Assembly (NCBI GenBank): GCA_001771545.1
Contig: MEUC01000007.1
Location: 8,030-72,029, forward strand
Length of the DNA stretch: 64,000 nucleotides
Direction: 5' to 3'
Source: a candidate division WOR-1 bacterium RIFOXYB2_FULL_42_35
GTDB taxonomy: Bacteria; Margulisbacteria; WOR-1; O2-12-FULL-45-9
Position 1 is the stretch's first letter, and the number at the start of each line of letters is the position of its first letter. Shown here piece after piece: positions 17,018 through 62,556 of the stretch. The notes under the pieces are model-generated. The model worked only from the letters and a program-made list of their open reading frames with translations. It was not told the origin of the DNA and searched no databases. The position numbers and the translations under genes were made by a program.

Positions 17018-17774
17018 AATCAGCTATTATCCTCAAGCCCTTCAAGGTCAACTTGTCATCTATTCTATCAACAACCGTCGTGTACTTGCAAATCAGCTGG
17101 GCTAATCCCCCCGTTGCAATGACTTTGATTTTCTGTTTTGAATTTTGAAATTTGGAATTAGAATTTGTTTGTAACTTGTAATTTGTAATTTGTAATTTGA
17201 TCCTATGAACCATCCCCTCCACCATCGCCACATACCCATAGACCAGCCCACTCTGCATGGCCGATTTTGTATCATTCCCAATCACTCGCTTGGGTGCTTC
17301 GATCTCTATCTTGGGCAGTTTTTCAGTCTGTTCATAGAGTGCATCGCGGGCTAGCGAAATCCCCGGGGCAATTACTCCACCAAGGTAAGCTCCTTCGGCT
17401 GAAACGACATCAAAGGTCGTGGCTGTGCCAAAGTCTATTATAATAGTGGGACCGCCAAATAACTTATAGGCTGCCAGGGCATCGACTACCCTATCGGAAC
17501 CGATCTCTTTTTTGTTTTTTAAGCTGACGATAAGACCGGGAATATTTTCTGCTGTCACAAAAAATGGCTGACAGCCAAACTTCTTTTTCAAAACTAATTT
17601 TAGTTGTCGATTAAGCGAAGGAACAACACTGGCAACTACTATCGAGTCAATCTTTTTGCCTATCTTGGGCGGACGATAATCTTCTGTCGGATAGCGCCAC
17701 TCAGAAACCAGCTTCTTCCTCTTAAAAAGGCCAAAGACTATATTGGTGTTACCGGCGTCAACTGTTAAGAGCAT
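17001..17774 (-). CDS. coaX: type III pantothenate kinase
   Basis: Contains MLLTVDAGNTN, DFGTATTFD and VIATGGLA. I start at ATG 17774, because the track's 18-aa extension runs into an upstream GC hairpin. Confidence 0.9.
   Translation of the reverse strand: MLLTVDAGNTNIVFGLFKRKKLVSEWRYPTEDYRPPKIGKKIDSIVVASVVPSLNRQLKLVLKKKFGCQPFFVTAENIPGLIVSLKNKKEIGSDRVVDALAAYKLFGGPTIIIDFGTATTFDVVSAEGAYLGGVIAPGISLARDALYEQTEKLPKIEIEAPKRVIGNDTKSAMQSGLVYGYVAMVEGMVHRIKLQITNYKLQTNSNSKFQNSKQKIKVIATGGLAQLICKYTTVVDRIDDKLTLKGLRIIADYVEMG
17124..17203 (-). repeat. word-repeat element translated in frame inside coaX
   Basis: TTGATTTTCTGTTTTGAATTTTGAAATTTGGAATTAGAATTTGTTTGTAACTTGTAATTTGTAATTTGTAATTTGATC encodes KLQITNYKLQTNSNSKFQNSKQK. 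Confidence 0.85.
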
Positions 17775-17875
17775 AGTTATATTATAACACCTCACCCCTG
17801 CCTGCCGACCCGCTTCGCCGCGAGGCAAGCAGGCAGGCCCATCTACATTAAGCCCTCCGACTTTTTTTTACCTCA

Positions 17876-17950
17876 CCCCCCTCTCTGATCAAGAGAGGGG
17901 GGAACAACAAACCAATAAATAAGGAAAACCCAAACAAGGGGGTGAGTTAA
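17876..17950. repeat. GC-hairpin element copy A
   Basis: CCCCCCTCTCT-GATCA-AGAGAGGGGGG (17876-17902) plus GGGGGTGAGTTAA (17938-17950). Confidence 0.8.
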
Positions 17951-18086
17951 GATAAATAGCTAGGGTTGAGAGTTCCAAAAATTACTAAAAAAGTTTTTTC
18001 TAAAAACTTTTGAAAATGGTGAAATTTTTTTAAAAAGGTATCGATATAGGATTGGAGCCAAACAAATAGAAAGGGGGAAAACGAAA

Positions 18087-18347
18087 ATGGTAGAAATCGG
18101 CGGGGTAGTTTTTTCTAGATTTGGGAGACAAAGAGTAGACCAGTATACCTGGTTAAGTCAGATGGCCGATGGAGTTACAGTTCGAACAAAAGGCGGGAAA
18201 TTAGCAACCATTAAAAAAGTAGGTAAAGACTCTGTTGAAGCTTTCTACTACCAAAGGGGACATGAAGTTAGAACCACTCTAACCTTCAGGGATATAGATT
18301 GGTCTAGTGGAGCAAGTGCTGCAAGCCTAACGATCTTGGATACCTAA
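18087..18347 (+). CDS. hypothetical protein (86 aa)
   Basis: A GGGGGA SD precedes the ATG. No family recognised. Confidence 0.4.
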   Translation: MVEIGGVVFSRFGRQRVDQYTWLSQMADGVTVRTKGGKLATIKKVGKDSVEAFYYQRGHEVRTTLTFRDIDWSSGASAASLTILDT

Positions 18348-18352
18348 CAGTC

Positions 18353-18646
18353 TTGGATTATGATAATATGACCAACAAACCATTTATAGTCAGAATAGTT
18401 AGTCCGACAGAAGAGCCGGCTCTTCCCAAGGCTGATATTCCGGCAATAAAGCCAGTCAAAAACAAAAATGATATTTTTGGTAAACAGAGCAGGATCATTA
18501 GTGGCTCTACCCTTGGTTTTGCCGCCGGTTTAATTGTTTATATGATGCTAAAACTTAACGGCGTTGACTTAGGCAGAGTCGAATCATCCTTTATAATCGG
18601 CATGCCATCTTTTCTTGGGGTTATGACTTCGTTGGTAATGTTTTAA
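18353..18646 (+). CDS. small membrane protein (97 aa)
   Basis: Two hydrophobic segments (LGFAAGLIVYMML and IIGMPSFLGVMTSLVMF). The start codon is uncertain (TTG 18353 or ATG 18368). Confidence 0.4.
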   Translation: MDYDNMTNKPFIVRIVSPTEEPALPKADIPAIKPVKNKNDIFGKQSRIISGSTLGFAAGLIVYMMLKLNGVDLGRVESSFIIGMPSFLGVMTSLVMF

Positions 18647-18652
18647 TCCGGC

Positions 18653-19654
18653 CTAACCAAGCAGCTTAAGAATCCTCTGCATATCTTCCGGTAACTCCGC
18701 GTCAAACTCGACACGCTTTCCGGTTCTCGGATGAATAAAGCCTAATTTAGCAGAATGGAGCAGCTGCCCGGACACCCGGTACTTTTCCCTGCGCTTGCCA
18801 TAGATCGGATCCCCCACTACCCCATAACCAAGATGGTTTAGATGGACCCTGATCTGGTGAGTCCGACCGGTTTTTATCACTACTGCCAATAAAGTGTAAT
18901 CTTTGAATCTTTGCAAGACCTTATATTCCGTAATTGCTTCCCGGCCTTTTTGCTTAAAACTGGGATCCTGAAATTTGGGGTTGGCTTTGATCTTTGCCCT
19001 CATGCTTAGGCTCGGTCCAAACAACCCCTGATCTCTAGTCTTTATTACCGCCATCCTTTTCCTGTCATGATGATGCCGGCCAATCTCTGTTTCAATCACC
19101 CCTTCATCTTGACTGACCACCCCATGCACCAAAGCAACATATTGCTTACTAATCTCTCTAGCCTTAAACTGTTCGGCCAAGGCTTGATGAGTAAAATCAT
19201 TTTTTGCCACTACGATCAAACCCGAAGTATCCTTATCCAAACGATGAACAATGCCCGGACGCAACACTCCGCCAATACCGGACAAATCCTTACAATGATA
19301 AAGCAAGGCATTAACTAGCGTCCCTTCATAATTACCAACAGCAGGATGAACCACCATCCCTCTAGCTTTATTGACCACTATTAAATCTTTATCCTCAAAA
19401 ACTACATCGAGGGGAATGTTTTCCGCTGCAACTTCCAACTTCTTTGGTGCAGGTACGGTGATAAAAACCTGATCGTTTTCTTTGAGCTTAATGCCAGGTT
19501 TCGCAATTTTACCATTGACTAAAACATTGCCATCTTTAATTAGTCTATTAACTTGTGACCGGGTCTGAACAATCTCTTCTTGGACAGTTAAAAAAGCATC
19601 AACCCTCTCTCCTGCCTGATCTTCCATAACAATATATTTAAATTCTTTTTTCAT
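18653..19654 (-). CDS. rluD: 23S rRNA pseudouridine synthase, RluA family with S4 domain
   Basis: Contains HRLDKDTSGLIVVAK and GRTHQIRVH, with an N-terminal S4-like domain. Confidence 0.9.
   Translation of the reverse strand: MKKEFKYIVMEDQAGERVDAFLTVQEEIVQTRSQVNRLIKDGNVLVNGKIAKPGIKLKENDQVFITVPAPKKLEVAAENIPLDVVFEDKDLIVVNKARGMVVHPAVGNYEGTLVNALLYHCKDLSGIGGVLRPGIVHRLDKDTSGLIVVAKNDFTHQALAEQFKAREISKQYVALVHGVVSQDEGVIETEIGRHHHDRKRMAVIKTRDQGLFGPSLSMRAKIKANPKFQDPSFKQKGREAITEYKVLQRFKDYTLLAVVIKTGRTHQIRVHLNHLGYGVVGDPIYGKRREKYRVSGQLLHSAKLGFIHPRTGKRVEFDAELPEDMQRILKLLG
18955..19000 (-). repeat. word-repeat segment inside rluD
   Basis: GGATCCTGAAATTTGGGGTTGGCTTTGATCTTTGCC encodes KIKANPKFQDP. It lies within an extra loop of about 28 aa between RKRMAV and GREAITEYKV. 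Confidence 0.6.
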
Positions 19655-19672
19655 ATTTTCCTTTACATTATA

Positions 19673-19724: not shown

Positions 19725-19835
19725 GGCTAAAACAAAGCCACCTGTTCTTGTCTCAGTTTTCCTTCCGCCTGCTCCGTTAGTATCTTAACACTACCTAGCT
19801 CACTGTAATAGGAGAATCTTTGGTTTTATTTTAGA

Positions 19836-20921
<1,086 letters not shown>

Positions 20922-22061
20922 TCACAGGATAAACATCGCATCGCCAAAGGAAAAAAAGCGGTATTTTTCTTGGATAGCCTCTTGGTATGCCTTCATAATA
21001 AAATCTTTACCCGCCAAAGCCGAAACTAACATAATCAAAGTCGATTTCGGCCAGTGGAAATTTGTAATCAGCGCATCAACAACTTTAAATTTATACCCGG
21101 GATAAATAAACAACTTACTCCGCCCAACTTTCCCGCCCCCTTCTCTTTCCAAGAGAAGGGGGTTGGGGGATGAGTTAAATACTGTTTCCAGGGTTCTAAC
21201 AGCCGTAGTCCCTACCGCAATAACCCGCTTCGCTTTTTCAACGGCTTTAACTGTTTCATCCGGGATTTCAAAATACTCCTCATGCATCGGATGATCTTCG
21301 ATCTTTTCTGTGCGAACAGGCAAAAAAGTTCCTAAGCCCGTATGAAGGGTCACATAAGCAACCCGAACTCCCTTGGCTTTAATTTTTTCTAAAAGTTCAG
21401 GAGTAAAGTGCAGCCCAGCCGTCGGCGCCGCCGATGCCCCTTCTTTCTCTGCATACACAGTTTGATAACGTTTTGATCTTTGATCTTTATAATTTTGGGC
21501 TTGTTTTGCACTTTGATCTTTGAATTTTAAACTTTTAATGTATGGCGGCAACGGAACCTCCCCTAACTCATGCACAACTTCCCAAAACTTTCCTTCAGAC
21601 TCAAACTTAATAATCTGTTCCCCACCCTCCAACTTTTCCAGAACGGTTCCAATTAACTGCCCCTCACCAAATCTAACCTTAGAGCCAACTTTTAACCGTT
21701 TCCCAGGTCTAACTAAACATTTCCATTTCTGACATTGATCTTTGATCTTGGGATTTGTTTTGAACTTTGTACTTTGATCTTGGATCTTTTGCTCCCCTGG
21801 ATTAACAAGCAAAACCTCCACCTTCCCCCCACCCTCTACTTTTTTCCCCACCAGATTAGCCGGCATTACTTTTGTATCGTTCAGCACCAAGAGATCCCCG
21901 GAGTTTAGATAATCAATAATATCGTAGAAATGTTTGTGCTCAACAGTTTGAGCCTGACGATTGAGAACCATTAAGCGGGATTTATCACGCTCCACAGCCG
22001 GCTCATGCGCAATCAGTTCTGAGGGGAAATTAAAATCAAAATCAGTGGTTTTGGTCATCAA
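20922..22061 (-). CDS. queA: S-adenosylmethionine:tRNA ribosyltransferase-isomerase
   Basis: Contains PPYI, YQTVYA, AAPTAGLHFT, VGTTAVRTLE and FFSFGDAMFI. Confidence 0.93.
   Translation of the reverse strand: MMTKTTDFDFNFPSELIAHEPAVERDKSRLMVLNRQAQTVEHKHFYDIIDYLNSGDLLVLNDTKVMPANLVGKKVEGGGKVEVLLVNPGEQKIQDQSTKFKTNPKIKDQCQKWKCLVRPGKRLKVGSKVRFGEGQLIGTVLEKLEGGEQIIKFESEGKFWEVVHELGEVPLPPYIKSLKFKDQSAKQAQNYKDQRSKRYQTVYAEKEGASAAPTAGLHFTPELLEKIKAKGVRVAYVTLHTGLGTFLPVRTEKIEDHPMHEEYFEIPDETVKAVEKAKRVIAVGTTAVRTLETVFNSSPNPLLLEREGGGKVGRSKLFIYPGYKFKVVDALITNFHWPKSTLIMLVSALAGKDFIMKAYQEAIQEKYRFFSFGDAMFIL
21131..21180. repeat. GC-hairpin element copy C, in frame inside queA
   Basis: CCCCCTTCTCT-TTCCA-AGAGAAGGGGG (21136-21162) plus GGGGGATGAGTTAA. 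It is translated as SSPNPLLLEREGGGK. Confidence 0.8.
21468..21535 (-). repeat. word-repeat element in frame inside queA (second site)
   Basis: GTTTTGATCTTTGATCTTTATAATTTTGGGCTTGTTTTGCACTTTGATCTTTGAATTTTAAAC encodes LKFKDQSAKQAQNYKDQRSK. Confidence 0.85.
21730..21792 (-). repeat. word-repeat element in frame inside queA (third site)
   Basis: GACATTGATCTTTGATCTTGGGATTTGTTTTGAACTTTGTACTTTGATCTTGGATCTTTTGC encodes QKIQDQSTKFKTNPKIKDQCQ. It shares GGATTTGTTTTGAACTTTG with the copy at 62511. Confidence 0.85.
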
Positions 22062-22291: not shown

Positions 22292-22780
22292 TTATTTCAC
22301 CTCAAAGCGAATAGGAACCTCAAACCAACTAGCAACATTTACCCCGGCTTGTGAAGCTGGACTGAATTTCCACCTTGAAATAGCTACTACAGCTGATTGA
22401 TCAAATTCGACAACCCCGGAACTGGATTTAACTTTAACATCTTTTGCTTGACCATTTTGGCCAATAAGAACTGACAACAACACTTTGCCTGACAATCCTT
22501 CAGACAAGGCTGTCTCTGGATAAGCCGGCAAAATACTAAAGGTAATCTGCGGAGGAACAAAAGGTAGCGGTGCAGCAACTACTGGCTGAGACATTGGCAC
22601 AGCCTTGGTCTTGGCCACAGCAACTGGTTTTGCAGTTACTATCGACAACTCTTCTCCATAGAATACCGGCATTTCCCTGGTTTGAACCAATTGAAATGGC
22701 CTAGCCATAAAATAGCTCACAGCTAACGCTACAACCAAAATCGTTCCGACCGCTACTAAATTAAAACTTTTTGTTGTCAT
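22292..22780 (-). CDS. tonB: TonB-family energy transducer
   Basis: Has an N-terminal TM anchor, a Pro/Val-rich linker and a C-terminal TonB_C domain (YPETALSEGLSGKVLLSVLIGQNGQAKDVKVKSSSG...AISRWKFSPA). Confidence 0.85.
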   Translation of the reverse strand: MTTKSFNLVAVGTILVVALAVSYFMARPFQLVQTREMPVFYGEELSIVTAKPVAVAKTKAVPMSQPVVAAPLPFVPPQITFSILPAYPETALSEGLSGKVLLSVLIGQNGQAKDVKVKSSSGVVEFDQSAVVAISRWKFSPASQAGVNVASWFEVPIRFEVK

Positions 22781-22789
22781 TTTTTTCTC

Positions 22790-22850
22790 CTTTTGATCTT
22801 TTGCCTTGCAAATTGTTTTGATCTTTCACCTTGGATCTTTGATCTTGATC
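22790..22850 (-). repeat. intergenic word-repeat element (receptor-tonB spacer)
   Basis: The sequence is TTTTGATCTTTTGCCTTGCAAATTGTTTTGATCTTTCACCTTGGATCTTTGATCTTGATC. Confidence 0.8.
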
Positions 22851-30782: not shown

Positions 30783-30805
30783 CCGAAGCCCGAAGGGCGA
30801 AGGAG
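30783..30805. repeat. CCGAAGCCCGAAGGGCGAAGGAG repeat, copy 1
   Basis: It matches 38941-38963 at 22/23 positions. Confidence 0.75.
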
Positions 30806-30807
30806 AA

Positions 30808-30881
<74 letters not shown>

Positions 30882-30895
30882 CAACAAAAGAAGAA

Positions 30896-30971
30896 TCGGA
30901 GCGACTGGATTCGAACCAGCGATCTCTACCACCCCAAGGTAGCGCCTTAGACCAAGCTTGGCCACGCTCCG
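30896..30971 (-). tRNA. tRNA-Pro (anticodon GGG)
   Basis: Folded by hand as CGGAGCG/CGCTCCG acceptor, anticodon arm CTACC-TTGGGGT-GGTAG and T loop GGTTCGAATCC. No CCA is encoded. Confidence 0.8.
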
Positions 30972-30986
30972 ACAGGATACATTATA

Positions 30987-38904: not shown

Positions 38905-38940
38905 TTCGCTATGTTCTTTGCGCTTCGGGGGAATTATCCT

Positions 38941-38963
38941 CCGAAGCCCGAAGAGCGAAGGAG
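38941..38963. repeat. CCGAAGCCCGAAGAGCGAAGGAG repeat, copy 2
   Basis: It matches 30783-30805 at 22/23 positions. Here its 3' end supplies the GGAGG SD of rny. Confidence 0.75.
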
Positions 38964-38969
38964 GAAACA

Positions 38970-42444: not shown

Positions 42445-42490
42445 GCCATCCCTCCCCAATAATCAGCGTAATTTGGTGACTGCACTCCCT

Positions 42491-42621: not shown

Positions 42622-45438
42622 TTAGCCAACCAACGCCTTGACCCTCTCGGCAATAATTTTCTTCTTCTCGTTTAGTTCCAGTTGTTTGGTCTTTTGCTGT
42701 TCAATAGCTTCTGGTGGGGCTTTAGCCGTAAAGCCGGGATTACCCAATAGCTTGGTAATCTGATTTAATGCCAGCTCAATTTTTTGTTCTTCGTTCTTTA
42801 AGCGTTCAACCTCTGCCCCAATATCAATCAAACCCTGGAGAGGGATAAAAAATTCCACATCAGCCACTACTGCAGAGATTGCCTGGGCTGGTTTTTGTTT
42901 GGCCTTATCAACAAAGTTAACTTTATTAGCCTTAGCTAAGGTTTTAATGAAAGGCTCCCCTTCTTTTAGGGCTTGCAAACTTTCTTTATTGTCCGTCACA
43001 AAAATAAGCTCAATATCTTTCGTCTGCACCTTCATCTCTGCCTTAAGGTTACGGATTTTGACGATCATTTGCTTCAACAACTCCATGGCAGCTTCTGCTT
43101 TTTGGTCAATAAGATTCTTATCAGACTTAGGCCATTCAGCCTGCAAAAGAAAGCCTGGTCTTTCTCCCTGCACTACTGTACTACTAACTACTGCACTACT
43201 AATTTCCTCCGAGATAAACGGCATAAACGGATGCATCAGACGCAGTGAACCCTCTAGCACATAAAGCAAGACACCTTGGACTCGTTGTTTTCGCTTGGCA
43301 TCATCAGAGTAAAGATCACTCTTGGAAATCTCAACATACCAATCACAAAATTCACCCCACAAGAAATCATAAAGCTTTCTGGCAGTTTCTCCAAAATCAT
43401 AGCCTTCAAGCAGTTCCGTAACATCTTTAACGGTATTTTGGTAACGGCTCAATATCCAACGATCAGCTAATTCGAGATCTTTTAAGTCTGACAGTCCGGC
43501 GGTCCGGCGGTCTTGCCCCATCAACACAAATCGACTGACATTCCAAATCTTATTGGTAAAATTTCTCGCTTCAGTAATTTTATCTTGAGTTAATTTAATG
43601 TCCTGTCCTTGCCCAGTGATCAAAGAGATTAGGGCAAAGCGCAAAGCATCCGCGCCAACCTGATCGATAATTTCAATTGGATCAATTACATTGCCAAAAG
43701 ACTTGCTCATCTTTTTACCGCTGGCATCACGCACTAAGCCATGAATAAAAACAGTGTGAAAAGGTGCCTTTTTCATAAAGTGCACCCCCATCATAATCAT
43801 GCGTGATACCCAGAAAGTTATAATGTCATAACCTGTCACTAAAACATCTGTAGGATAAAAAGTTTTGAGATCTTTGGTCTCTTCTGGCCAGCCTAAGGTT
43901 GAGAAAGGCCACAAAGCCGACGAAAACCAGGTATCAAAGACATCGGGGTCTTGTTCCAGCTGTGTCCCTCCACATTTTGGACACTTGGATGGTTTTGTTT
44001 CTGAAACTATGACTTCCTCACAATACTGTTTAGAATTTTGATCTTTAGAATTTGAATTTGTTTCGGATTTCGGATTTCGGATTTCGGATTTGCAGTAGTA
44101 AACAGGTATCCGATGGCCCCACCACAACTGCCTAGAAATACACCAATCCTTGAGGTTCATCATCCATTGCAGATAAACTTTTGTCCAACGATCCGGAACA
44201 TACTTAATTTTGCCTTCTTCCACCACACGAATAGCATTGCGGGCTAAGTCGGCAACTTTGACGTACCATTGGTCGGACAGATACGGTTCAATAACTTGTT
44301 TACAACGATAACATTCCCCAACAGAGTTTTCGTAATCTTCAATTTTTTCCAAAAAGCCTTTTTCTTCCAGCAACTCAACTATTCGTGCTCGAGCTTTATA
44401 ACGATCTAAACCTTCTAATTCTTTTATCGCTGATTTTTCTTCTTCGGAAAATTCCTGGAAAGTAATTTTAGCATCGGGAGTCAAAATGTTGATGCGCGGC
44501 AAATCGTGTCTTTCTCCCATGGCAAAATCGTTGGGATCATGGGCTGGGGTAACTTTTACGGCACCTGAGCCAAACTCCGGATCAACAAAATCATCTTTGA
44601 TAACAGGAATTTTTCTATTAGTTAGCGGCAGAACCAACAGTTTGCCAATCAGCTTTTTGTAACGTTTGTCTTTAGGGTTGACTGCAACAGCCGTATCCCC
44701 CAACATCGTCTCCGGCCTGGTTGTAGCAACTACAATATAATAAGTTTTTTGTTTGGAATTTTTAATTTCTGATTTAGAATTTGTTTCGAGTTTAGAGTTT
44801 TGAGTTTCGGATTTTTCCAAAGGATATTTGATCCACCATAATTTCCCCTTTTTACTCGCATGTTCAACCTCAATATCAGAGATTGCAGTACCGCACTTAG
44901 GACACCAGTTAACCAATCTTTTGCCTCTGTAAACTAACCCATCTTTGTATAGTGTAACAAACTCTCTAGTCACCGCTTTAGAAAGACCTTCATCCATAGT
45001 GAAGCGCTCACGAGTCCAATCGAGGGCACTGCCTAAACGTCTAAGCTGTCTGGTAATATTGCCACCATACTCTTCTTTCCACTGCCAAACACGTTCTAAA
45101 AACTTTTCTCGACCAAGTTTATCTTTGGTAAGATCTTCTTTGCGCAAAGCCTTGGCTACAACGTTTTGAGTGGCAATGCCGGCATGGTCAGTTCCCGGAA
45201 TCCACAAAGCATTAAAACCCTGCATTCTTTTATAACGAATTAATAGGTCCTGAATAGAATTATCCAAAGCATGGCCCATGTGCAGATTGCCTGTAACATT
45301 GGGTGGAGGAATAACTATTGTAAAAGGTTTTTTATCAGAGTTATTATCAGGGGTAAAAAGTTTGCTCTCTTCCCAGATTTTGTACCACTTCTGCTCAACT
45401 TCTTTGGGATCATAGATTTTAGGTATTTCTTGGTTCAT
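42622..45438 (-). CDS. valS: valyl-tRNA synthetase
   Basis: Contains HMGHALD (HIGH), KMSKSFGN (KMSKS), ATTRPETMLGDTAV (editing domain) and a C-terminal coiled coil. Confidence 0.96.
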   Translation of the reverse strand: MNQEIPKIYDPKEVEQKWYKIWEESKLFTPDNNSDKKPFTIVIPPPNVTGNLHMGHALDNSIQDLLIRYKRMQGFNALWIPGTDHAGIATQNVVAKALRKEDLTKDKLGREKFLERVWQWKEEYGGNITRQLRRLGSALDWTRERFTMDEGLSKAVTREFVTLYKDGLVYRGKRLVNWCPKCGTAISDIEVEHASKKGKLWWIKYPLEKSETQNSKLETNSKSEIKNSKQKTYYIVVATTRPETMLGDTAVAVNPKDKRYKKLIGKLLVLPLTNRKIPVIKDDFVDPEFGSGAVKVTPAHDPNDFAMGERHDLPRINILTPDAKITFQEFSEEEKSAIKELEGLDRYKARARIVELLEEKGFLEKIEDYENSVGECYRCKQVIEPYLSDQWYVKVADLARNAIRVVEEGKIKYVPDRWTKVYLQWMMNLKDWCISRQLWWGHRIPVYYCKSEIRNPKSETNSNSKDQNSKQYCEEVIVSETKPSKCPKCGGTQLEQDPDVFDTWFSSALWPFSTLGWPEETKDLKTFYPTDVLVTGYDIITFWVSRMIMMGVHFMKKAPFHTVFIHGLVRDASGKKMSKSFGNVIDPIEIIDQVGADALRFALISLITGQGQDIKLTQDKITEARNFTNKIWNVSRFVLMGQDRRTAGLSDLKDLELADRWILSRYQNTVKDVTELLEGYDFGETARKLYDFLWGEFCDWYVEISKSDLYSDDAKRKQRVQGVLLYVLEGSLRLMHPFMPFISEEISSAVVSSTVVQGERPGFLLQAEWPKSDKNLIDQKAEAAMELLKQMIVKIRNLKAEMKVQTKDIELIFVTDNKESLQALKEGEPFIKTLAKANKVNFVDKAKQKPAQAISAVVADVEFFIPLQGLIDIGAEVERLKNEEQKIELALNQITKLLGNPGFTAKAPPEAIEQQKTKQLELNEKKKIIAERVKALVG
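44023..44091 (-). repeat. word-repeat element in frame inside valS (site 1)
   Basis: This 69-nt element contains (CGGATTT)x4 plus GAATTTGAATTTG and TTTGATCTTT words. It encodes KSEIRNPKSETNSNSKDQNSKQY between two Cys codons. Confidence 0.9.
44746..44814 (-). repeat. word-repeat element in frame inside valS (site 2)
   Basis: TTTTTTGTTTGGAATTTTTAATTTCTGATTTAGAATTTGTTTCGAGTTTAGAGTTTTGAGTTTCGGATTTTTC encodes KSETQNSKLETNSKSEIKNSKQK, just before ATTRPET. Confidence 0.85.
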
Positions 45439-49267: not shown

Positions 49268-50071
49268 CTACCTTCCCTTATCCTCCGCCTGCTCCTTTGC
49301 CTTCGCCTTTTCCCAAAGCTCATCCATCTGCTCGATAGATAAAGATTTCTTAGCTAATTCTTTTTCTATTGCAGCAAAGCGGCGAATAAACTTATTGTTC
49401 GCTTGCTGTAAAGCTTCCTCGGCATTAATATCCAATTTCCTGGCCACATTCGTAATCGCAAACAACAAATCCCCAATTTCTTCACTCAGTTTTGGATTTG
49501 GAATTTTGGATTTTAGTTTTTGATCTTTGGATTTCAACAGAGCGTGAACTTCCTCGAGTTCCTCATGCACCTTCTCCCACGCCCCAGCAACTTGATCCCA
49601 ATCAAAACCGACTCGAGAAGCCCTCTTTTGGATCCGATCAGCTCGATACAATGCTGGCATAGAGTTTGGAATGCTTTTTAGCATACTTTGGTCTTTATCC
49701 TTTGATCTTTGAGCTTCTGTCTTCTTGATCTTCTCCCACTTCTCCCAAACTTGCTCTTTAGTCTTAGCATCTCCCTTAGCAAAAACATGCGGATGTCGTC
49801 TAATCATTTTGGCTGATATATTTTCAATTACATCATTAATATCAAAATGCTTATCTTCCTGAGCGAAAACCGACAACATCACTACATGAAGCAGCATGTC
49901 GCCAACTTCGTCCGCTAATTTCCGATAGTCTTGATCATCAATCGCCTGAATGGCCTCGTAAACTTCTTCAACCAAGTAGGGCTTCAAACTTTCCAGGGTT
50001 TGTTCTCTATCCCAGGGGCATTCTTGGCGCAAACGTTTAACAATCCCAACAAATTCAGTAAATTTTTTCAC
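49268..50071 (-). CDS. mazG: nucleoside triphosphate pyrophosphohydrolase MazG
   Basis: Has tandem MazG domains (ECPWDREQT...EEVYE...EVGDMLL and EELEEV...EIGDLLFAITNVAR). Confidence 0.9.
   Translation of the reverse strand: MKKFTEFVGIVKRLRQECPWDREQTLESLKPYLVEEVYEAIQAIDDQDYRKLADEVGDMLLHVVMLSVFAQEDKHFDINDVIENISAKMIRRHPHVFAKGDAKTKEQVWEKWEKIKKTEAQRSKDKDQSMLKSIPNSMPALYRADRIQKRASRVGFDWDQVAGAWEKVHEELEEVHALLKSKDQKLKSKIPNPKLSEEIGDLLFAITNVARKLDINAEEALQQANNKFIRRFAAIEKELAKKSLSIEQMDELWEKAKAKEQAEDKGR
49488..49537 (-). repeat. word-repeat element in frame inside mazG
   Basis: GTTTTGGATTTGGAATTTTGGATTTTAGTTTTTGATCTTTGGATTTCAAC encodes LKSKDQKLKSKIPNPKL. Confidence 0.8.
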
Positions 50072-55070: not shown

Positions 55071-56252
55071 TTAAGCTTCTATTAAAAGATTAATATCTTG
55101 CCAGGGCCAAGCCCAAATATTTGCGGCAAGTTTTACTTTTCTTGGCGTTTGGCAAACCAGATATCCTTTGCTGGCTTGAGGATATTCTTCAAGAAAAACC
55201 TTAAGATGCCTAAGATCTTTGGGGCGTGGAGTTTTCGTCCATTTCACCTCAATCGGTACAAACCGGCCTTCTTTTTCAATTACCCAGTCAACCTCTGGCC
55301 CATCAGGATCACGCCAAAACCTTATTTTAGTGCCAGGCTTAGCTAATCGGGCATAACGTATAAGCTCAAGGCCAACAAACTGCTCAAAAAGTTCTCCCAG
55401 GCGACTGGGCAAAAGCCGGCCTCCTTCTCTAGCACAGAGTCGCCGCACTCCCAAGTCAAAAAGTAAAAACCGGCTGGCGCGGGTGAGCTTTTTACGGGTT
55501 CTGCTCTGGCTTATGGGCTCAACAAACTCGGCAATGAGACAGTCCTTTAATATTTCAAAATAAGACATGATGGTAGTATGGCTAACGCCAATTTCCTGCG
55601 AAAGGGAGCGGAAGTTAAGAATTTTTCCTGATCCCTGCCCGGCATATTCCAAAAAGCGTGCGAATGATCCAACATTCCTGACCAAGGCTTCGGAACGGAC
55701 TTCTTCTTCAAGATAAGCTTCAACATATGAAGCCAGATCTATTTCCCGGTCAGACAGGTTTCTTTCTTTAACGATGCCAGGCAATGTTCCATAAAGCAAA
55801 ACCTGTTCCAAGGAAGGAACAGGAAATTCATGATAAACAAAAGGGTCTAGGCGCAAACTAACCAGGCGGCCAGGCAGCAAGTTAAGATCAGAACCTCTTT
55901 TCAATTTCCTGGCGCTTGATCCGGTCAAAACAAATTGGGCAATCTGGTTGTCAATTAGATACTGCACCACATCCATAATAGCCGGAACCTTCTGGACCTC
56001 ATCCAAGCAGACAAAAACCTTCCCTTTCTTTTTGCCAGTTGCCAAGGCTTCTACTTCTCCCTGCAAAAGATCAGGCTCTTTTTCATAACGCTGTCTGGTT
56101 GCCGGCAAAAGAAAAGAAAGCACAAGATCAAAGGTAAATTTTTTGATTAGGGTTGACTTCCCTGTTTGTCGCGGCCCCAGAAGCAGGACGCTTTTCCCTC
56201 TATTTAAGTGGTGCTGCAAAATGCTTTCCAGCAATCTCTCTTTGTATTGCAT
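55071..56252 (-). CDS. AAA+ ATPase with C-terminal DUF4143-type domain
   Basis: Has Walker A GPRQTGKST and Walker B VFVCLDEVQ. The C-terminal EVDWVIEKEGRFVPIEVKW is a D...ExK motif. Confidence 0.8.
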   Translation of the reverse strand: MQYKERLLESILQHHLNRGKSVLLLGPRQTGKSTLIKKFTFDLVLSFLLPATRQRYEKEPDLLQGEVEALATGKKKGKVFVCLDEVQKVPAIMDVVQYLIDNQIAQFVLTGSSARKLKRGSDLNLLPGRLVSLRLDPFVYHEFPVPSLEQVLLYGTLPGIVKERNLSDREIDLASYVEAYLEEEVRSEALVRNVGSFARFLEYAGQGSGKILNFRSLSQEIGVSHTTIMSYFEILKDCLIAEFVEPISQSRTRKKLTRASRFLLFDLGVRRLCAREGGRLLPSRLGELFEQFVGLELIRYARLAKPGTKIRFWRDPDGPEVDWVIEKEGRFVPIEVKWTKTPRPKDLRHLKVFLEEYPQASKGYLVCQTPRKVKLAANIWAWPWQDINLLIEA

Positions 56253-56288: not shown

Positions 56289-56308
56289 GGGGGGGGGGGG
56301 GGGGGGGG
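56289..56308. repeat. 20-nt poly-G (poly-C on the coding strand) homopolymer
   Basis: I counted 20 consecutive G. The tract lies immediately upstream of the -35 hexamer. Confidence 0.9.
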
Positions 56309-56369: not shown

Positions 56370-56894
56370 CTATTTTGGCGGATAATTCTTGCCAGCGCAA
56401 CCCATATCAAAACCTATAGAGGGACGCAGGCTCTCACCTAAAACAACTACCTCTTCTTTGAACCTAATCGGCATCGAATTCATACCAACAGGACCGTGGA
56501 TATCTTTGGTCGCGAATTGATATGTAGACCACAACTCTCTCATTGGCTCCTTTGACAGACCTCTTTTTTCGACAGCTGGATGATTTCTCGAAATCTGCCA
56601 TTGCAAATAAGTAACCATAGTACCCAATGACATAGTGCCAAGATCTTCAGTTATATCACCGGATTTTTCTCTTAGCGCACTTACCATGAAAGGACCCCTA
56701 TTTATATCTGCAACATGAATACGTGGACGGCCCTCCGTGATTTTCAAATTTTCCATACCAGCACCTGCTGTCCTTTTCAAGGAAGCAAGGTATTGTCTAT
56801 AACCCTTATTTATTTCTCGCAAGGCCGGTTTTTCAACAATCTGCCTATATAAATAGTCAACCATTCTTGTAGCCACTCTTTCTGCAATTCCCAT
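56370..56894 (-). CDS. hypothetical protein (174 aa)
   Basis: Has a strong AAGGAGG SD and its own terminator. No family recognised. Confidence 0.5.
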   Translation of the reverse strand: MGIAERVATRMVDYLYRQIVEKPALREINKGYRQYLASLKRTAGAGMENLKITEGRPRIHVADINRGPFMVSALREKSGDITEDLGTMSLGTMVTYLQWQISRNHPAVEKRGLSKEPMRELWSTYQFATKDIHGPVGMNSMPIRFKEEVVVLGESLRPSIGFDMGCAGKNYPPK

Positions 56895-56914: not shown

Positions 56915-56970
56915 TCCTTGTAACTTTTATCACTTTGATCTTGACACTTTGATCTTTGAGCTTGTTTTAT
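56915..56970 (-). repeat. intergenic word-repeat element
   Basis: The sequence is CTTGTAACTTTTATCACTTTGATCTTGACACTTTGATCTTTGAGCTTGTTTTATG. Confidence 0.75.
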
Positions 56971-57083
56971 GCACCTCCCTGGGTATCTGTTTTATGTCTC
57001 TCTATAGTATTATCGTCACTTTTTGGTAAAAATTGCAGTTTTTATGAAAAATAATTTTGGAGTTTTTTTTCGGGAACGTGCTA

Positions 57084-57794
57084 TCACCTTAAAACGGAGA
57101 TATAATTTTTGAGCATAAAAATAACTTCTGTTTTAAGATGGTTCTTGACCCAAGCTTTTTCTTTCTCGTTCAACAATTCGCCCAGTCCCTGCAGAATTTG
57201 GTTGTCCTTAATTTTTTCGATAAAAGCAACGCAATCACCTAAATAGTCTTTGGTCTTTTTACCTGTTCTAGCCAGAATTAGGGCAGCGTTAATATCCCAA
57301 TTTTTTTTAGCAAAATAGTAGCTATCATAGACATCGCGCATCGCTATTTGCGTCCGCAAAGTTAAAGCTATCAATTTACCGGCAAAAAGATAGTCCTTTT
57401 TGGCCGCAAACATGGAGATACCAAGATATTCTTTTAATTCGTACTGCTCTTTGATATTAGGGACTAGCTGTCTGGTATTTATCTCGATTTTAATATTATG
57501 GTCATCATCCCCATAGGAAAGCAAGGCAAAAACAGTAAATCGTTTTATACGGTTATCTTTAATTTCGCCATATTTTGCCAAAATCAATTTAACTTTATCA
57601 AAAACTAGTTTTTGGTTTTCCTCGCTTGGCGACAACAAATCAAAATCTAAATCCACAGAAAAGCGCGGCAGGCCATAAAAAAAGTAAGCGCAAGTGCCGC
57701 CTTTAAAACCTAAGAGAGGCGCCAACGAAACGTCACTATGGATTTCCCTTAAGATTTGTCCCATTATTAATTGGTGCTTTTCTTTATTAAGCAT
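57084..57794 (-). CDS. abiEii: nucleotidyltransferase AbiEii/AbiGii-family toxin
   Basis: FKGGTCAYFFYGLPRFSVDLDFDL is the family's NTase motif. It overlaps the upstream partner by 8 nt. Confidence 0.8.
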   Translation of the reverse strand: MLNKEKHQLIMGQILREIHSDVSLAPLLGFKGGTCAYFFYGLPRFSVDLDFDLLSPSEENQKLVFDKVKLILAKYGEIKDNRIKRFTVFALLSYGDDDHNIKIEINTRQLVPNIKEQYELKEYLGISMFAAKKDYLFAGKLIALTLRTQIAMRDVYDSYYFAKKNWDINAALILARTGKKTKDYLGDCVAFIEKIKDNQILQGLGELLNEKEKAWVKNHLKTEVIFMLKNYISVLR

Positions 57795-58356
57795 AACTTT
57801 CCCTGTATTTATTAAGCCGCTTGACCAGCTGCTTATTATTGTAAATCTTTACTATTTCAGCACATTGCTCCCAATTGAGCGGTTGCAAGTTGTCGAAGTA
57901 ATAATCAGGAAACAGGTAAATCATGTCCAAGAATGCCCTCTCCAAAGTAGCAATGCTATAGCTCTCCTTATTTACCACTCCTGTTGGGTTGTACAAAACA
58001 GTATCTTTTAACTTCCTGAAGATAAAAGCCTGTTTATTAATCGTAAGGGTTTTCGGCCACTTGCCAGCCACAAAAATAGTGTCATAATGCTGAAAAATAA
58101 CGCCTACTTCCCGCAGCACTGTTTCAAAACTTATATAGGAAGGAGTATAAAGACTGGTCGCCAATTCCTTGGGATTGTAGTTTTTCTCTTTAGAAAAAAC
58201 ACCCCTGGTCAATCGAGTTAAGGCTCCCTGTTTGGCATAATAAGCTGTTTTGGCATTCAGTTTTTTGGGGTCGCTTTCTTCCCAAATTAAAGCTAAGTCT
58301 TCGGTGGTCAAGACAGTTTTCGGTGCCCTGTATAATTTAGCTATTAAATTATCCAT
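57787..58356 (-). CDS. abiEi: AbiEi-family type IV antitoxin / transcriptional regulator
   Basis: Has an N-terminal wHTH-like segment VLTTEDLALIW...AKQGALTRLTRGVFS. Its position upstream of AbiEii is typical. Confidence 0.7.
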   Translation of the reverse strand: MDNLIAKLYRAPKTVLTTEDLALIWEESDPKKLNAKTAYYAKQGALTRLTRGVFSKEKNYNPKELATSLYTPSYISFETVLREVGVIFQHYDTIFVAGKWPKTLTINKQAFIFRKLKDTVLYNPTGVVNKESYSIATLERAFLDMIYLFPDYYFDNLQPLNWEQCAEIVKIYNNKQLVKRLNKYRESYA

Positions 58357-59113: not shown

Positions 59114-59114
59114 C

Positions 59115-59975: not shown

Positions 59976-60004
59976 CGCTGTCTCCCTATTGCCTAAACGG
60001 AGTC

Positions 60005-60760
60005 TTACTCCTCAACTGACAGATAAATGTTGTCAACGTTAAATTTGATGGCTCCATCTGCTTTGGAACCAAGACAAATAAACTGCAACTCTAATAAGCC
60101 GCCAGAACCATTGGTTTGTTGGGGATTCCAGATATCATCACCAACCCCGTCATTGGCATCAACAAAATCAGCCAAAGGAATTTCTAGACGCTTCCAGCCA
60201 CTCCAATCAACAGAAATATCATAAACTAATTTATCGTCATAAACCGGGGCATAGCTATTGTTGGAATCCTGCTCAGCTTGCCAATTGTTATTATCATCAT
60301 CCAAGAGCTCAATTTTTAAAGTGCCGGAACCAAGCCCGTTGCCATAAACATCAATCTTAAAAGTGTCATAAATTGATAGGTCCTGATTTTCCTTAGCTAT
60401 GTAAGTGCCGCAACCACCGGCATACCAATTGGTAGCTGTGCCGTTAAAAGCTAAAGAATAATTACCTACCTCGGCTGCAACCTTCCGATCCCCAGCAGAG
60501 TAATCAGTATTGGCAATTGGCTCGGCCTTTTTAATATCAAAAACCCACCATTCTTGTGGTGACTTTAAACTGCCAAATTCAAAATTGCTGATCAGATAAG
60601 ACCCACCAGCGGTAATCTTAGCAGTAGGGATAGTTTTTTTAGTATCTTGTGTGGTTGACGTACTTGAACTTTGTTTTTCCGAACTGCGCCCGCCAAAACC
60701 AAAAGAAGCAGAACCTAAAAGAAGAGACAAGACAACAAATACGATCATTAAACGTTTCAT
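60005..60760 (-). CDS. secreted protein with carbohydrate-binding-module-like (CBM11/CIA30-type) domain
   Basis: Has a signal peptide and a Ser/Thr linker. It contains WYAGGCGTY...FKIDVYGNG...WKRLEIPLADF. Confidence 0.45.
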   Translation of the reverse strand: MKRLMIVFVVLSLLLGSASFGFGGRSSEKQSSSTSTTQDTKKTIPTAKITAGGSYLISNFEFGSLKSPQEWWVFDIKKAEPIANTDYSAGDRKVAAEVGNYSLAFNGTATNWYAGGCGTYIAKENQDLSIYDTFKIDVYGNGLGSGTLKIELLDDDNNNWQAEQDSNNSYAPVYDDKLVYDISVDWSGWKRLEIPLADFVDANDGVGDDIWNPQQTNGSGGLLELQFICLGSKADGAIKFNVDNIYLSVEE

Positions 60761-60804
60761 ATTTTATTCTCCTGTTACTTCTTCGTCATTTTTGCGGAAA
60801 AATT

Positions 60805-62556
60805 TCACTTAAGTTCAAGAATTCCCCAAACGCTTGGGTCTTTATAAAAGTAGTAATCCCCATTCCAGATAAACTGACGTTCGCGCAAACCTGTTTCGTC
60901 CGCATCATCAAAAGCAATATCAAAAGGAATCTTTAGTCCTTTGGTGGGAGTAAAATATTTTTCCGCCCGAAAAGAGGCCCAGGGAATTTTTGCCTCGAGA
61001 ATATACCCAGCAGGGCTGCCGGTCTTTTTAACCACAATCTCACTCCCATTGGGTGACCTGCGACGCTGCCAGTTCCAAATCCCAGGATTATTCCCTTTGT
61101 CATTGCCGGTTCCAAGGCCAAGCTGGTAATCTCCACGTTCAATTGAGCTGCGACTAGGCTCTGCAGCAGGATTAAGCCCTAAAACTATTTCAAGCGCATC
61201 ACCATTCCAAATATCTTGAGTCTGTTTGTTATTAACTAGAGGAATTTTATCGCTAATTTCTGCGGCCAAATAAAGATTCTCCTCATCCCACATAAAATAC
61301 GCCTGACCAGACAAATCTTCCGGACCTTGCCAGGACAAACCTTCCTTAAGAAAAGAGGCATCAACCATTACAATTGGCTGGCTTTTGTTCCAATCAGCAA
61401 GATCCCCGTTAATAGTTAGGTTCCCAGGGACTCTTAAGGCCTGGGCTGTTTTCTGAGTCTTTTTGATATCATAAATCACGGGCTTAAAATTAGCCATAGC
61501 TTCCCCGGAACTAGAGAAGATTGGATCCTGTATAACTTGTCGGAACATTTCCAAAGATTTATTACTAGAGTTAACCCGCCAGTCGGCTTCTTTCCTAACA
61601 TCAAACCAGATTATAGCATCTATATTACGCATACTACTCTTCAATGAACCCAACATATCCTTGATCCAAACAGCTTTATCTCCCCCCTTCTCGGCAGATG
61701 AAAATTCGGCAATCATGACCGGTTTATCCGGCCAAAGTTTCTTTGCTAAACGCACCTGATCACGGAAAAGATAGCGAAAAGCCTCCCAACCACTCCATTC
61801 CTGGGTTTCTCCCCAGTTGTAACCATCAATCCCAATCCAATCGACATAATCATTGCCTGGATAAGCCAGGATCCAGTCATTCCAAGCTTCTTTAGGATTA
61901 GAAACGTTATTAAAACACCAAACCCATTTCACATTATTAACTTTTTCTTTTTTAAAAACATCAACTACATGCTTATAGGCCTTGATATATTTGTTTGCAT
62001 CCTTACCATTGTTAGGCACACTCCAGGGATAGGTACCGGTATTGAATTCATGAGCTAACCGTAAAAAAACCGGGTGTTTAAAGTTTCTGATTTCCTGGGC
62101 CCAATTACGGATATAGTGATCCCACTTGCCGGCAATAACATCATCAAGCTGAACCTTGCTATGGTTACTCCAATACCATGGCTCCCAAACAATCTGGGGC
62201 ACAGCCCCATAATTGATCACATCCGAAGCATCCTCAAAAGGGAAATTTTGTTCCCAATCCATATACCACATAATCATGGCCGGATTTTTCCCAACCTGTT
62301 CCGTAAATTTATTAATGTGATTCATATTGCGAGGAGCACCTTCGCGGAAGACACCGAGAAAAACTTCACGTTTAGCGGAAATATCATTACCGGAGGCGGA
62401 ACGAGCCATGGCCCAAGCTTGATGAAATCCCAAACTCAAAATCCCAAGTGCAAAAATCAAAATAAATCCCAAGCCCAAAGTTCCAAAATATTTTAAAATT
62501 GGGATTTGGAATTTTGGATTTGTTTTGAACTTTGATCTTTGGTTTTTGGATTTCAT
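60805..62556 (-). CDS. glycoside hydrolase family 26-like enzyme with C-terminal CBM9-like domain
   Basis: Contains LRLAHEFN (acid/base region), YPGNDYVDWIGIDGYN and MIAEFSS (nucleophile region). The C-terminal domain includes DEENLYLAAEISD. The signal anchor follows a repeat-derived N-terminus. Confidence 0.65.
   Translation of the reverse strand: MKSKNQRSKFKTNPKFQIPILKYFGTLGLGFILIFALGILSLGFHQAWAMARSASGNDISAKREVFLGVFREGAPRNMNHINKFTEQVGKNPAMIMWYMDWEQNFPFEDASDVINYGAVPQIVWEPWYWSNHSKVQLDDVIAGKWDHYIRNWAQEIRNFKHPVFLRLAHEFNTGTYPWSVPNNGKDANKYIKAYKHVVDVFKKEKVNNVKWVWCFNNVSNPKEAWNDWILAYPGNDYVDWIGIDGYNWGETQEWSGWEAFRYLFRDQVRLAKKLWPDKPVMIAEFSSAEKGGDKAVWIKDMLGSLKSSMRNIDAIIWFDVRKEADWRVNSSNKSLEMFRQVIQDPIFSSSGEAMANFKPVIYDIKKTQKTAQALRVPGNLTINGDLADWNKSQPIVMVDASFLKEGLSWQGPEDLSGQAYFMWDEENLYLAAEISDKIPLVNNKQTQDIWNGDALEIVLGLNPAAEPSRSSIERGDYQLGLGTGNDKGNNPGIWNWQRRRSPNGSEIVVKKTGSPAGYILEAKIPWASFRAEKYFTPTKGLKIPFDIAFDDADETGLRERQFIWNGDYYFYKDPSVWGILELK
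62497..62556 (-). repeat. word-repeat element forming the 5' end (including ATG) of the GH26-like gene
   Basis: AAAATTGGGATTTGGAATTTTGGATTTGTTTTGAACTTTGATCTTTGGTTTTTGGATTTCAT encodes MKSKNQRSKFKTNPKFQIPI. Confidence 0.85.

Follow-up and report, generated by a model that had tools for sequence, protein, structure and literature searches.

A stretch of 64,000 nucleotides from the candidate division WOR-1 bacterium RIFOXYB2_FULL_42_35 (GenBank assembly GCA_001771545.1, contig MEUC01000007.1, positions 8,030 to 72,029 of the forward strand), referred to here in its full length as the window, carries about 12 copies of an element that is built of tandem heptanucleotides and is A-rich on the sense strand, both inside intact genes such as those for valyl-tRNA synthetase (ValRS) and QueA and in intergenic spacers. 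Saganbacteria/Margulisbacteria (WOR-1) are the non-photosynthetic sister lineage of Cyanobacteria. We consider it probable, though well short of certain, that these copies belong to a dispersed family of heptanucleotide repeats, copied at the DNA level and retained by selection only where their translation does no harm; the family would be endemic to Saganbacteria/Margulisbacteria, with related copies in other phyla and in viral contigs. The analysis shows the architecture of the element, the homology of its copies within and across genomes, the lack of avoidance of open reading frames (ORFs), the placement of copies in loops and a link between orientation and hydropathy; the copying step and the neutrality of the peptides are inferred.

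Period-7 Arrays in the Window

The window has a GC content of 42%, and its minus strand holds most of the genes. A preliminary description, made from the sequence alone, had reported a dispersed element with at least 12 copies composed of words of 7-11 nt. T-rich repeats were indeed present on the plus strand at every coordinate named there, and the total of about 12 copies in 64 kb agrees, but the words proved to be strict 7-mers. Tandem Repeats Finder (TRF) placed period-7 arrays at 17136-17199, 21472-21488, 21735-21789, 22817-22850, 44061-44091, 44783-44809, 49490-49534, 49686-49734, 56933-56963 and 62499-62553, the clearest being TTTCGGA x4.4 at 44061-44091 with 100% matches. The hosts are CoaX, Tgt, QueA (two sites), ValRS (two), MazG (two), a GH26/CBM9 protein and, weakly, RluD, in addition to two intergenic spacers.

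When sliding self-similarity at lags 3-15 was compared with Markov shuffles, 9-10 period-7 arrays were found in the window against 0.05-0.5 in the shuffles. Between 0 and 7 arrays, according to the threshold, were counted at the other periods (3-13 and 15), with no more than 2 under the strictest one, and 2-11 at period 14, which is twice 7. Similarly, TTTGATCTT occurs 19 times where 2.1 occurrences are expected, a number reached in 0 of 100 shuffles. Both excesses speak against the possibility that the words are no commoner than base composition predicts. In addition, the 19-mer that copies at 21745-21775 and 62511-62545 were said to share, GGATTTGTTTTGAACTTTG, was recovered as an exact match with two occurrences in the window, at 21751 in the QueA site A copy and at 62516 in the GH26 copy.

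Homology and Architecture of the Element

Comparison among the copies revealed 38 nt alike at 87% between CoaX and ValRS site 2, 42 nt alike at 83% between CoaX and ValRS site 1, 32 nt alike at 91% between GH26 and QueA site B, and a 20/20 nt match between GH26 and MazG site 2. Eight copy pairs reached an ungapped score of at least 17, against 0.05-0.15 expected under Markov models of order 1-3 that were trained on the copies themselves. The copies thus share ancestry, with a similarity beyond base and word composition, which bears out the earlier view that they are homologous and not merely biased in composition.

Eight of nine copies can be aligned on the sense strand without gaps, and each opens with exactly four AARNNNN heptamers, which are often homogenised within a copy (AAATCCG x4 in ValRS site 2; AAATTAC x3 plus AAGTTAC in CoaX). 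This quartet is followed by AAAC and then by four less regular heptamers, again closing in AAAC. Across 16 copies from the window and other genomes, autocorrelation gave an identity of 0.62 at lag 7, 0.52 at 14, 0.43 at 21, 0.26 at 28, 0.62 at 32, 0.16 at 35 and 0.62 at 39. The gap-free alignment, together with the peaks of this profile at lags 7 and 32, establishes a hierarchy in which a 7-nt unit builds a 32-nt module (four units plus AAAC) and two modules build an arm of 64-66 nt. The TTGTTT(T) core of the preliminary description corresponds, on the opposite strand, to the junction, AAAC followed by AAA, between two four-unit modules. A shorter type, found in Tgt, consists of (AATGWCA)x4 plus AATGRAKG and spans 36 nt.

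The element had also been called non-palindromic, which is true of single arms: the folds of eight single copies (-0.2 to -8.3 kcal/mol) do not surpass those of shuffles, and single arms are less structured than shuffles. It does not extend to all copies, as inverted pairs exist in the window and in high-GC viral contigs. The window pair belongs to the 5' end of the GH26 gene, where a plus-strand arm (62432-62497) meets a minus-strand arm (62488-62553) head to head, and it is predicted to form a hairpin of ~140 nt (-51.4 kcal/mol, z = -4.0) in which the start codon is sequestered. Only one of the ~12 window copies belongs to an inverted pair. At the gathering threshold, Rfam returned only two tRNA-Pro genes. 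A known RNA family was also tried at an E-value threshold and rejected, the inverted pairs matching only generic miRNA-hairpin models, below threshold. A 45-aa concatenate of element peptides searched against a protein database gave six candidates and no useful match.

Distribution in the Lineage

Period-7 arrays are about 12 times as dense in Margulisbacteria/Saganbacteria as in unrelated loci. In 250 kb of this lineage, 44 arrays were counted (17.6 per 100 kb), whereas 135 other loci (2.13 Mb) yielded 1.46 per 100 kb, with 14 of 31 in long ORFs. Omnitrophota (197 kb) had 4.6 per 100 kb (7/9 in long ORFs), and Cyanobacteria (111 kb) had 15.4 per 100 kb. With ValRS and QueA removed from the census of the lineage, 22 arrays remained in ~224 kb, or ~10 per 100 kb. 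The relation to coding sequence differs sharply between the two sister groups: 42 of the 44 lineage arrays lie in long ORFs, at all relative positions, as compared with an ORF cover of 93% (p = 0.77), while only 3 of the 17 cyanobacterial arrays do so against a cover of 82% (p = 2e-8). The lineage arrays are therefore not depleted from ORFs, and the cyanobacterial arrays strongly are.

A profile built from seven window copies and run against 2.85 Mb of loci found all its matches at E <0.7 in Margulisbacteria/Saganbacteria loci, including ValRS of locus L167 (E = 1e-6), carA of the same locus, L161 and L168. The same architecture was seen in other genomes and genes, namely carA, CoaBC, ValRS, an FMN reductase and a NYN protein, and further copies occur in the same species outside the window (L161). 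Genes identical to those of the window are present in the Rifle aquifer assembly GCA_001772455.1 and in related metagenomes, and the nearest ValRS sequences are labelled Candidatus Margulisiibacteriota, Saganbacteria or WOR-1. To the left of the window, two loci of the same species differ: an enolase gene separates the ABC-transporter and Fic genes in L162, no gene is called between them in L161, and a repeat copy (TTTGATCTT...) lies at that junction.

Copies in Host Proteins

As had been proposed, the copies lie in frame in essential genes; the ORFs of all hosts are intact through the copies, and codon views agree. Except for the inverted GH26 arm, all copies given below are on the minus strand.

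The two ValRS copies are full arms, detected by both TRF and nhmmer. The site 2 arm (44027-44092) is (AAATCCG)x4 plus AAAC plus a second module, 66 nt or 22 codons in all; it encodes KSEIRNPKSETNSNSKDQNSKQ and lies between two Cys of a zinc-knuckle region. The site 1 arm (44749-44814; KSETQNSKLETNSKSEIKNSKQK) lies at the tip of a beta hairpin. Both are insertions relative to Thermus thermophilus ValRS. In an AlphaFold model built on 87 orthologues (mean predicted local distance difference test score, pLDDT, 85.3), the segments with pLDDT <50 are aa 212-229 and 460-467, which are the two inserts, modelled as coil, plus a short segment at 580-583. The site 1 insert tips the hairpin of strands 192-207 and 234-239. 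The suggestion that the segments occupy surface loops is thus supported by the model for ValRS, where both inserts fall in low-confidence coil and the placement would spare the fold, as at surface sites.

QueA carries two insertions relative to the Thermotoga maritima and Bacillus subtilis proteins (1VKY, 1YY3). The site B arm (21469-21534; KSLKFKDQSAKQAQNYKDQRSK; nhmmer 21473-21534) is found in neither structure, and the site A arm (21723-21788; EQKIQDQSTKFKTNPKIKDQ; TRF, nhmmer) shares its 19-mer with the GH26 copy. The copy in CoaX, a type III pantothenate kinase, is a full in-frame arm of two 32-nt modules (17134-17199; TRF; nhmmer 17137-17199) that encodes ...KLQITNYKLQTNSNSKFQNSKQK... 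and makes a 16-residue insertion relative to Bacillus anthracis PanK-III (PDB 2H3G). In RluD, a decayed copy (18975-19010; RAKIKANPKFQD), for which a TTTGATCTT match at 18986 and the codon view give weak evidence, lies within a ~32-residue insertion relative to Escherichia coli RluD (1V9F), with the alignment break at aa 204-235. MazG was compared with the E. coli protein: site 2 (49490-49535; KSKDQKLKSKIPNPK), a partial copy detected by TRF and by the match to GH26, with nhmmer giving E = 0.57 only, adds six residues, and site 1 (49685-49734; AQRSKDKDQS), a weak or decayed copy detected by TRF with a 17/17 nt match to the copy at 56915, adds two. The single AATGWCA-type module in Tgt (20355-20393; TRF, alignment) overlies an existing loop of equal length with no net gain of residues; its unit type was also found in L167, L168, L083 and L086. 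The view that the segments are insertions accordingly holds for ValRS, QueA, CoaX and RluD, and not for MazG site 1 or Tgt. Alignment of orthologues agrees, since the ValRS, QueA, CoaX and RluD segments are missing from solved structures of other phyla and from many orthologues of the same phylum.

In the GH26/CBM9 protein, the minus-strand arm (62488-62553; nhmmer E = 4.6e-9) supplies the start codon and a Lys-rich N-terminus (MKSKNQRSKFKTNPKFQ). Its inverted partner (62432-62497, plus strand), read on the minus strand, gives a hydrophobic segment of the same protein (ILKYFGTLGLGFILIFALGILSLGF); nhmmer detected it at 62432-62487 (E = 1.7e-5) although it was outside the training set of the profile. 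Two copies are intergenic. One arm (22783-22848; nhmmer 22790-22848) ends at the Shine-Dalgarno sequence and ATG of a TonB-like ORF with a TonB_C domain (22292-22780), and the other copy (56915-56975; TRF, sequence) lies upstream of the ORF at 56370-56894.

Turnover at Orthologous Sites

Among 80 ValRS orthologues of the phylum, site 1 is a minimal loop (e.g., EGSK) in about half and carries diverse inserts in the rest, and site 2 inserts are always located between the two Cys of a knuckle. The same ValRS peptides recur across genomes and sites: SEIRNPKSE from (AAATCCG)n, MTNDKCQ from (AATGACA)n and ITNYKLQ from (AAATTAC)n. P0019, the nearest relative of the window ValRS at 81% identity, lacks an insert at site 2, and at site 1 its only addition is a heptamer array that is short and of a different kind. 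Between the window and L167, the ValRS gene is 65% identical in nucleotides and the site 2 element 84% (53/63); L002, a closer relative than L167, has the AAATTAC subfamily at this site. In QueA orthologues (57-63% identity), arrays of GAAAATC, GAAAGTT, GAACACG and other units occupy the same three loops. Since orthologues bear different subfamilies or nothing at the same sites, the insert sites are recurrent targets with turnover, and not ancestral loops. Ancestral loops are also ruled out by the lack of the ValRS, QueA, CoaX and RluD segments in homologues of the PDB and by P0019, in which site 2 has no insert.

Two further features of ValRS in this phylum were observed. Across P0019-P0099 the protein occurs in two forms, with a Cys knuckle (WYC...C.EIIVSE) or without it (WY-KGEEIYVGE), and site 2 repeat inserts are found only in the Cys form, between the two Cys. 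The window ValRS, of the Cys form, is 81% identical to P0019, of the non-Cys form, which hints at local replacement or recombination. At site 1, orthologues P0059, P0064, P0074 and P0080 have a different insert of the type PHPLSLSP...GRG...GEG, which looks like the translation of another repeat family, GC-rich and probably palindromic.

Orientation and Hydropathy

According to the preliminary description, every copy has the same orientation relative to transcription. All window arms but one are A-rich on the sense strand; the arm at 62432-62497 is opposite, and T-rich-sense copies occur in signal peptides and intergenic DNA of relatives. A common orientation is not a property of the element. 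As all window hosts are on one strand, effects of transcription and replication are inseparable within the window.

In the lineage as a whole, the peptides encoded by A-rich-sense arrays are hydrophilic (Kyte-Doolittle -0.6 to -2.6) and situated in the interior of proteins. Those encoded by T-rich-sense arrays are hydrophobic (+1.7 to +3.0), and five of the seven arrays fall in the first 9% of the ORF, a clustering at N-termini with Fisher p = 0.0012. The TonB-dependent receptors of L083 and L086, for instance, carry such arrays in their signal-peptide regions. Of the five, the array upstream of recA in L168 probably belongs to the 5' untranslated region. The GH26 protein combines the two, with a Lys-rich N-terminus from the A-rich arm and, from the inverted arm, a hydrophobic segment before an AWA-type cleavage motif. 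Mean hydropathy is -1.43 for the sense and +1.05 for the antisense reading. Avoidance of stop codons was considered as the cause of the bias and rejected, with 61 stop triplets in sense and 60 in antisense. Because hydropathy tracks orientation and stop triplets are equal, orientation is best explained by selection on the encoded peptide, and not by the mechanism of insertion.

Unit Number, Viral Contigs and Length Variation

High-identity heptamer runs in the lineage reach at most 4.7 units (n = 20), and the five perfect runs are all of 4.4-4.6 units; cyanobacterial runs have 3-9 units. Outside Cyanobacteria, perfect runs are either no longer than 24 nt or of 30-32 nt, with none between or beyond. 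When IMG/VR viral contigs were scanned for (AAATCCG)x3, 22 distinct arrays came to light, none of them longer than 33 nt; the contigs that carry them have 33-68% GC. The window profile found near-full-length arms in five of these contigs, of 58-65% GC (E = 1.5e-7 to 3e-5). The arms are often inverted pairs that overlap the end of an ORF, ahead of the Shine-Dalgarno sequence and ATG of the next gene, although the ORF context is ambiguous because high GC leaves many frames open. Near-full-length copies were located at L179 3532-3674, L185 9822-9929, and L189 2804-2859 and 11455-11511, those of L179 and L185 being inverted pairs between an ORF end and the next Shine-Dalgarno sequence and ATG. Rfam has no family for the viral-contig copies. 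Long AAATTAC/AATGWCA arrays were also met in viral contigs and set aside, as they are mostly in metagenome-assembled genomes of giant viruses and look like ordinary microsatellites of eukaryotic type. Four-unit arrays with unrelated units (GCAGTCT, GACCACA, ATTGGTC, CTCCAAA), all spanning 30-32 nt, were noted in other phyla, at L077 4581-5889 (an Omnitrophota ValRS), L028 6367-6398 (within ValRS) and L008 17957-17986.

One length variant was observed. Two assemblies of the same population, at low coverage, have a 31-nt deletion within the CoaX copy (L165 1150-1500, L166 860-1210; 17140-17170 in the window), about one module in length and placed between equivalent units of the two modules; it causes a frameshift and a truncated protein (231 vs 257-275 aa). 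No length variants of ValRS, Tgt, RluD, MazG or GH26 were found within 90% clusters. As regards features of phase variation, the hosts are housekeeping genes, and one frameshifting variant, the low-coverage CoaX deletion, was seen.

Relation to Known Repeat Families

The Rickettsia palindromic element (RPE) had been named as the only well-known precedent, but a known class fits, namely the dispersed heptanucleotide tandem repeats (STRRs, TAACTGA and GGGNATC repeats; PMC4679880, PMC4692102). The 7-nt unit, a mode of four units and occasional inverted pairs are common to the present family and the heptamer repeats, and the coding lifestyle is common to it and RPEs; it lacks the intergenic bias and variable unit number of the former and the palindromy of the latter. 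Unit number in the heptamer class varies from 2 to more than 20 by slippage, whereas the present runs stop at 4.4-4.7. The TAACTGA repeats of Beggiatoaceae, Cyanobacteria and Bacteroidetes occur in sets of 2-6 with a patchy distribution; of the 169 sets only 25 are not intergenic, stops interrupt every frame of the forward orientation, and ten sets are read in reverse inside ORFs, one in a surface loop of an RpoC-like protein (MacGregor 2015, PMC4679880). They are heptamer repeats like the present family, but no two-module architecture was described for them (PMC4679880). The GGGNATC/GGGGAYT repeats of Xanthomonas and Nostoc are heptamers with a four-unit mode and frequent convergent pairs near the ends or starts of ORFs (Rehm et al. 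2015, PMC4692102); their preference for four units was attributed to G-quadruplex formation, and 7-11% of the Xanthomonas repeats are intragenic (PMC4692102). These repeats are G-rich and under-represented in coding sequence, whereas the present units are A-rich and cannot form a G-quadruplex.

Cyanobacteria reportedly contain heptanucleotide sequences known as short tandemly repeated repetitive (STRR) sequences (Mazel et al. 1990). The present family resembles them in its 7-nt unit, head-to-tail arrays and many dispersed loci, in a sister phylum and at a like density in the census, but the cyanobacterial arrays are longer, have a variable number of units (3-9) and are strongly excluded from ORFs, whereas the present arrays are capped at four units per module. 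No tandem dimer of the canonical STRR units CCCCAGT, TTGGTCA and CAACAGT was found in the window. RPEs are said to be palindromic elements of ~100-150 bp that have entered conserved and essential genes of a compact genome without breaking the frame, are translated and are tolerated at surface sites (Ogata et al. 2000). Insertion in frame into conserved genes with the host ORF intact (here ValRS, QueA, CoaX and RluD) is common to both families; RPEs, however, are palindromic without a 7-nt periodicity, whereas single arms here do not fold, and length, periodicity and host phylum differ. A more distant parallel is found in housekeeping proteins of Plasmodium, where aminoacyl-tRNA synthetases and other core enzymes carry low-complexity Asn/Lys insertions that are disordered and lineage-specific. 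In both cases hydrophilic, disordered loops are born from repetitive A-rich DNA (for context, PMC4770516), but those of Plasmodium stem from repeats at the codon level (3 nt) in a eukaryotic genome of extreme AT content, and the present ones have a 7-nt period, a defined architecture and a genome background of 42% GC. The literature searched, which took in the Saganbacteria/Margulisbacteria genome paper, yielded no account of heptamer elements in frame within genes of Margulisbacteria or Saganbacteria.

Origin and Maintenance of the Element

We propose that the family is made up of non-autonomous heptanucleotide direct repeats, of which two arms occasionally make an inverted pair. Copying would take place at the DNA level, candidates being ectopic templated repair, gene conversion between arrays or a dedicated enzyme, and copies would land regardless of coding sequence in a genome that is ~93% coding. 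Selection would then keep those copies with a frame-preserving length, no stop in the used frame and a tolerated peptide. The outcome would be disordered Lys/Asn/Ser/Gln loops at permissive sites of the protein surface in the case of A-rich-sense arms and hydrophobic signal or anchor segments at N-termini in the case of T-rich-sense arms, and intergenic arms would persist beside start codons. Slippage and unequal alignment inside copies may homogenise units and cause deletions, and the peptides would most likely be passengers, neutral or mildly useful.

Several points weigh against this proposal. The analysis revealed neither a copying machinery nor a target-site duplication or a signature at the termini. 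With regard to traits of miniature inverted-repeat transposable elements and repetitive extragenic palindromic elements, single arms have no inverted termini and the junctions inspected have no duplicated flanks; no transposase domain was detected in the 20 of ~60 window ORFs scanned. No fresh insertion was caught, mobility being read from shared architecture only, and different units at orthologous sites could also come from in situ turnover. The ValRS site 2 copy, which is conserved above the gene average, could be functional and not a passenger. Translation of the segments is presumed from the intact frames of essential genes. The census is small (250 kb) and partly biased, as L167-L169 were chosen for a long ValRS.

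It may be supposed instead that the arrays are pure in situ microsatellites, formed by independent slippage of a local heptamer at permissive loops with no copying between loci, their similarity arising from composition and from selection for hydrophilic, stop-free codons. As summarised in PMC4679880, heptanucleotide simple sequence repeats are the commonest long ones in bacteria, and an origin by polymerase slippage has been proposed for them (Mrazek et al. 2007); the perfect tandem runs, the different units at orthologous sites and the deletion variant within an array are in keeping with such an origin. Slippage, however, is contradicted by the quantised modules, perfect or near-perfect runs stopping at 4.4-4.7 units in 20 lineage and 22 viral-contig arrays when cyanobacterial runs extend over 3-9, and by the multi-unit strings common to unlinked genes and separate genomes. 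The conserved 32-nt higher-order period and module junction and the same A-rich element in contigs of 58-65% GC also weigh against it, and we regard it as improbable. We give even less credence to the idea that the Lys/Asn/Ser-rich segments are selected protein modules, adaptive flexible appendages with, for example, non-specific RNA affinity, of which the regularity in DNA is a by-product. Several hosts act on RNA (ValRS, QueA, Tgt and RluD), the same loops are hit repeatedly in the phylum, and the conservation of the ValRS site 2 segment would fit a selected role. Against this, CoaX, MazG, carA, CoaBC and a glycosidase are hosts as well, copies exist in intergenic DNA, many orthologues do without the segments, which are predicted to be disordered, and the reverse orientation serves hydrophobic segments. 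Moreover, the 7-nt period is no multiple of 3, so that the conserved object is the DNA and not the peptide.

The intergenic copies bring a third possibility into view, that of a cis-acting nucleic-acid element (a four-heptamer protein site, an A-rich translation leader, or a paired hairpin that acts as terminator or regulator) that would have its real function in intergenic DNA and have spilled over into coding sequence. Each of the two intergenic window copies lies directly against a Shine-Dalgarno sequence and ATG, one copy begins with an ATG, and the start codon of GH26 is sequestered in the fold of the window pair (-51 kcal/mol). Single arms, less structured than shuffles, would suit a leader, and in high-GC viral contigs the family lies at ORF ends just upstream of a Shine-Dalgarno sequence and ATG, often as inverted pairs. 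Similar positions and a four-unit mode have been reported for the TAACTGA and GGGNATC repeats (PMC4679880, PMC4692102). Nevertheless, 95% of lineage arrays are inside ORFs at all relative positions, and unit sequences vary among copies, a poor fit to a sequence-specific site; this explanation, too, appears to have little chance of being correct. To our knowledge, no protein is known to bind the heptamer element.

If the proposed copying and filtering of a repeat family is true, it would be a second, independent case, after the RPEs of Rickettsia, of a repeat family in essential genes, on a different principle, and it would tie the cyanobacterial heptamer-repeat puzzle to a non-photosynthetic sister phylum. 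It would also add a new constraint, quantised four-unit modules independent of G-quadruplex potential, and offer a natural experiment on the conversion of random repeat DNA into protein loops and signal peptides. For marker proteins such as ValRS in candidate phyla, alignments, phylogenies and annotations become inflated and distorted where such segments are present. A bolder idea, which we put forward as a speculation that is doubtful but not far-fetched, is that the 32-nt heptamer quartet (four AARNNNN plus AAAC) is the quantum of a cross-phylum repeat class produced by a dedicated copying mechanism. The four-unit mode of G-rich repeats would then be the same phenomenon and not an effect of the G-quadruplex, and in Saganbacteria/Margulisbacteria the element would have adapted to a ~93% coding genome by translatability in both orientations, becoming a major source of new disordered loops, and even of de novo signal peptides, throughout the proteome.

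Other Features of the Window

Two similar CGAAG-rich, period-7-like stretches (CCGAAGCCCGAAGGGCGAAGGAG...) were observed at 30783-30810 and 38939-38969; the former adjoins the tRNA-Pro pair (30808-30972), and the latter runs up to the start codon of the gene at 38970. Twenty consecutive G at 56289-56308, which read as poly-C on the gene strand, lie 37 nt ahead of the start of a gene for a DUF4143/AAA_14 ATPase (55071-56252). Homopolymers of 20 nt are classic slippage-prone tracts. A paralogue of this ATPase, likewise AAA_14 plus DUF4143, lies at 41293-42459, and each of the two adjoins a repeat copy or tract; in L167 a DUF4143 fragment (9494-9796) is directly upstream of ValRS. In addition, a DUF6036-like nucleotidyltransferase (sub-threshold Pfam match) was noted at 16505-17017, and an AbiEii-type nucleotidyltransferase toxin gene at 57084-57794. 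The ORF upstream of the latter (57787-58356) overlaps it and has no Pfam match, and together (57084-58356) the two probably form a type IV toxin-antitoxin pair.

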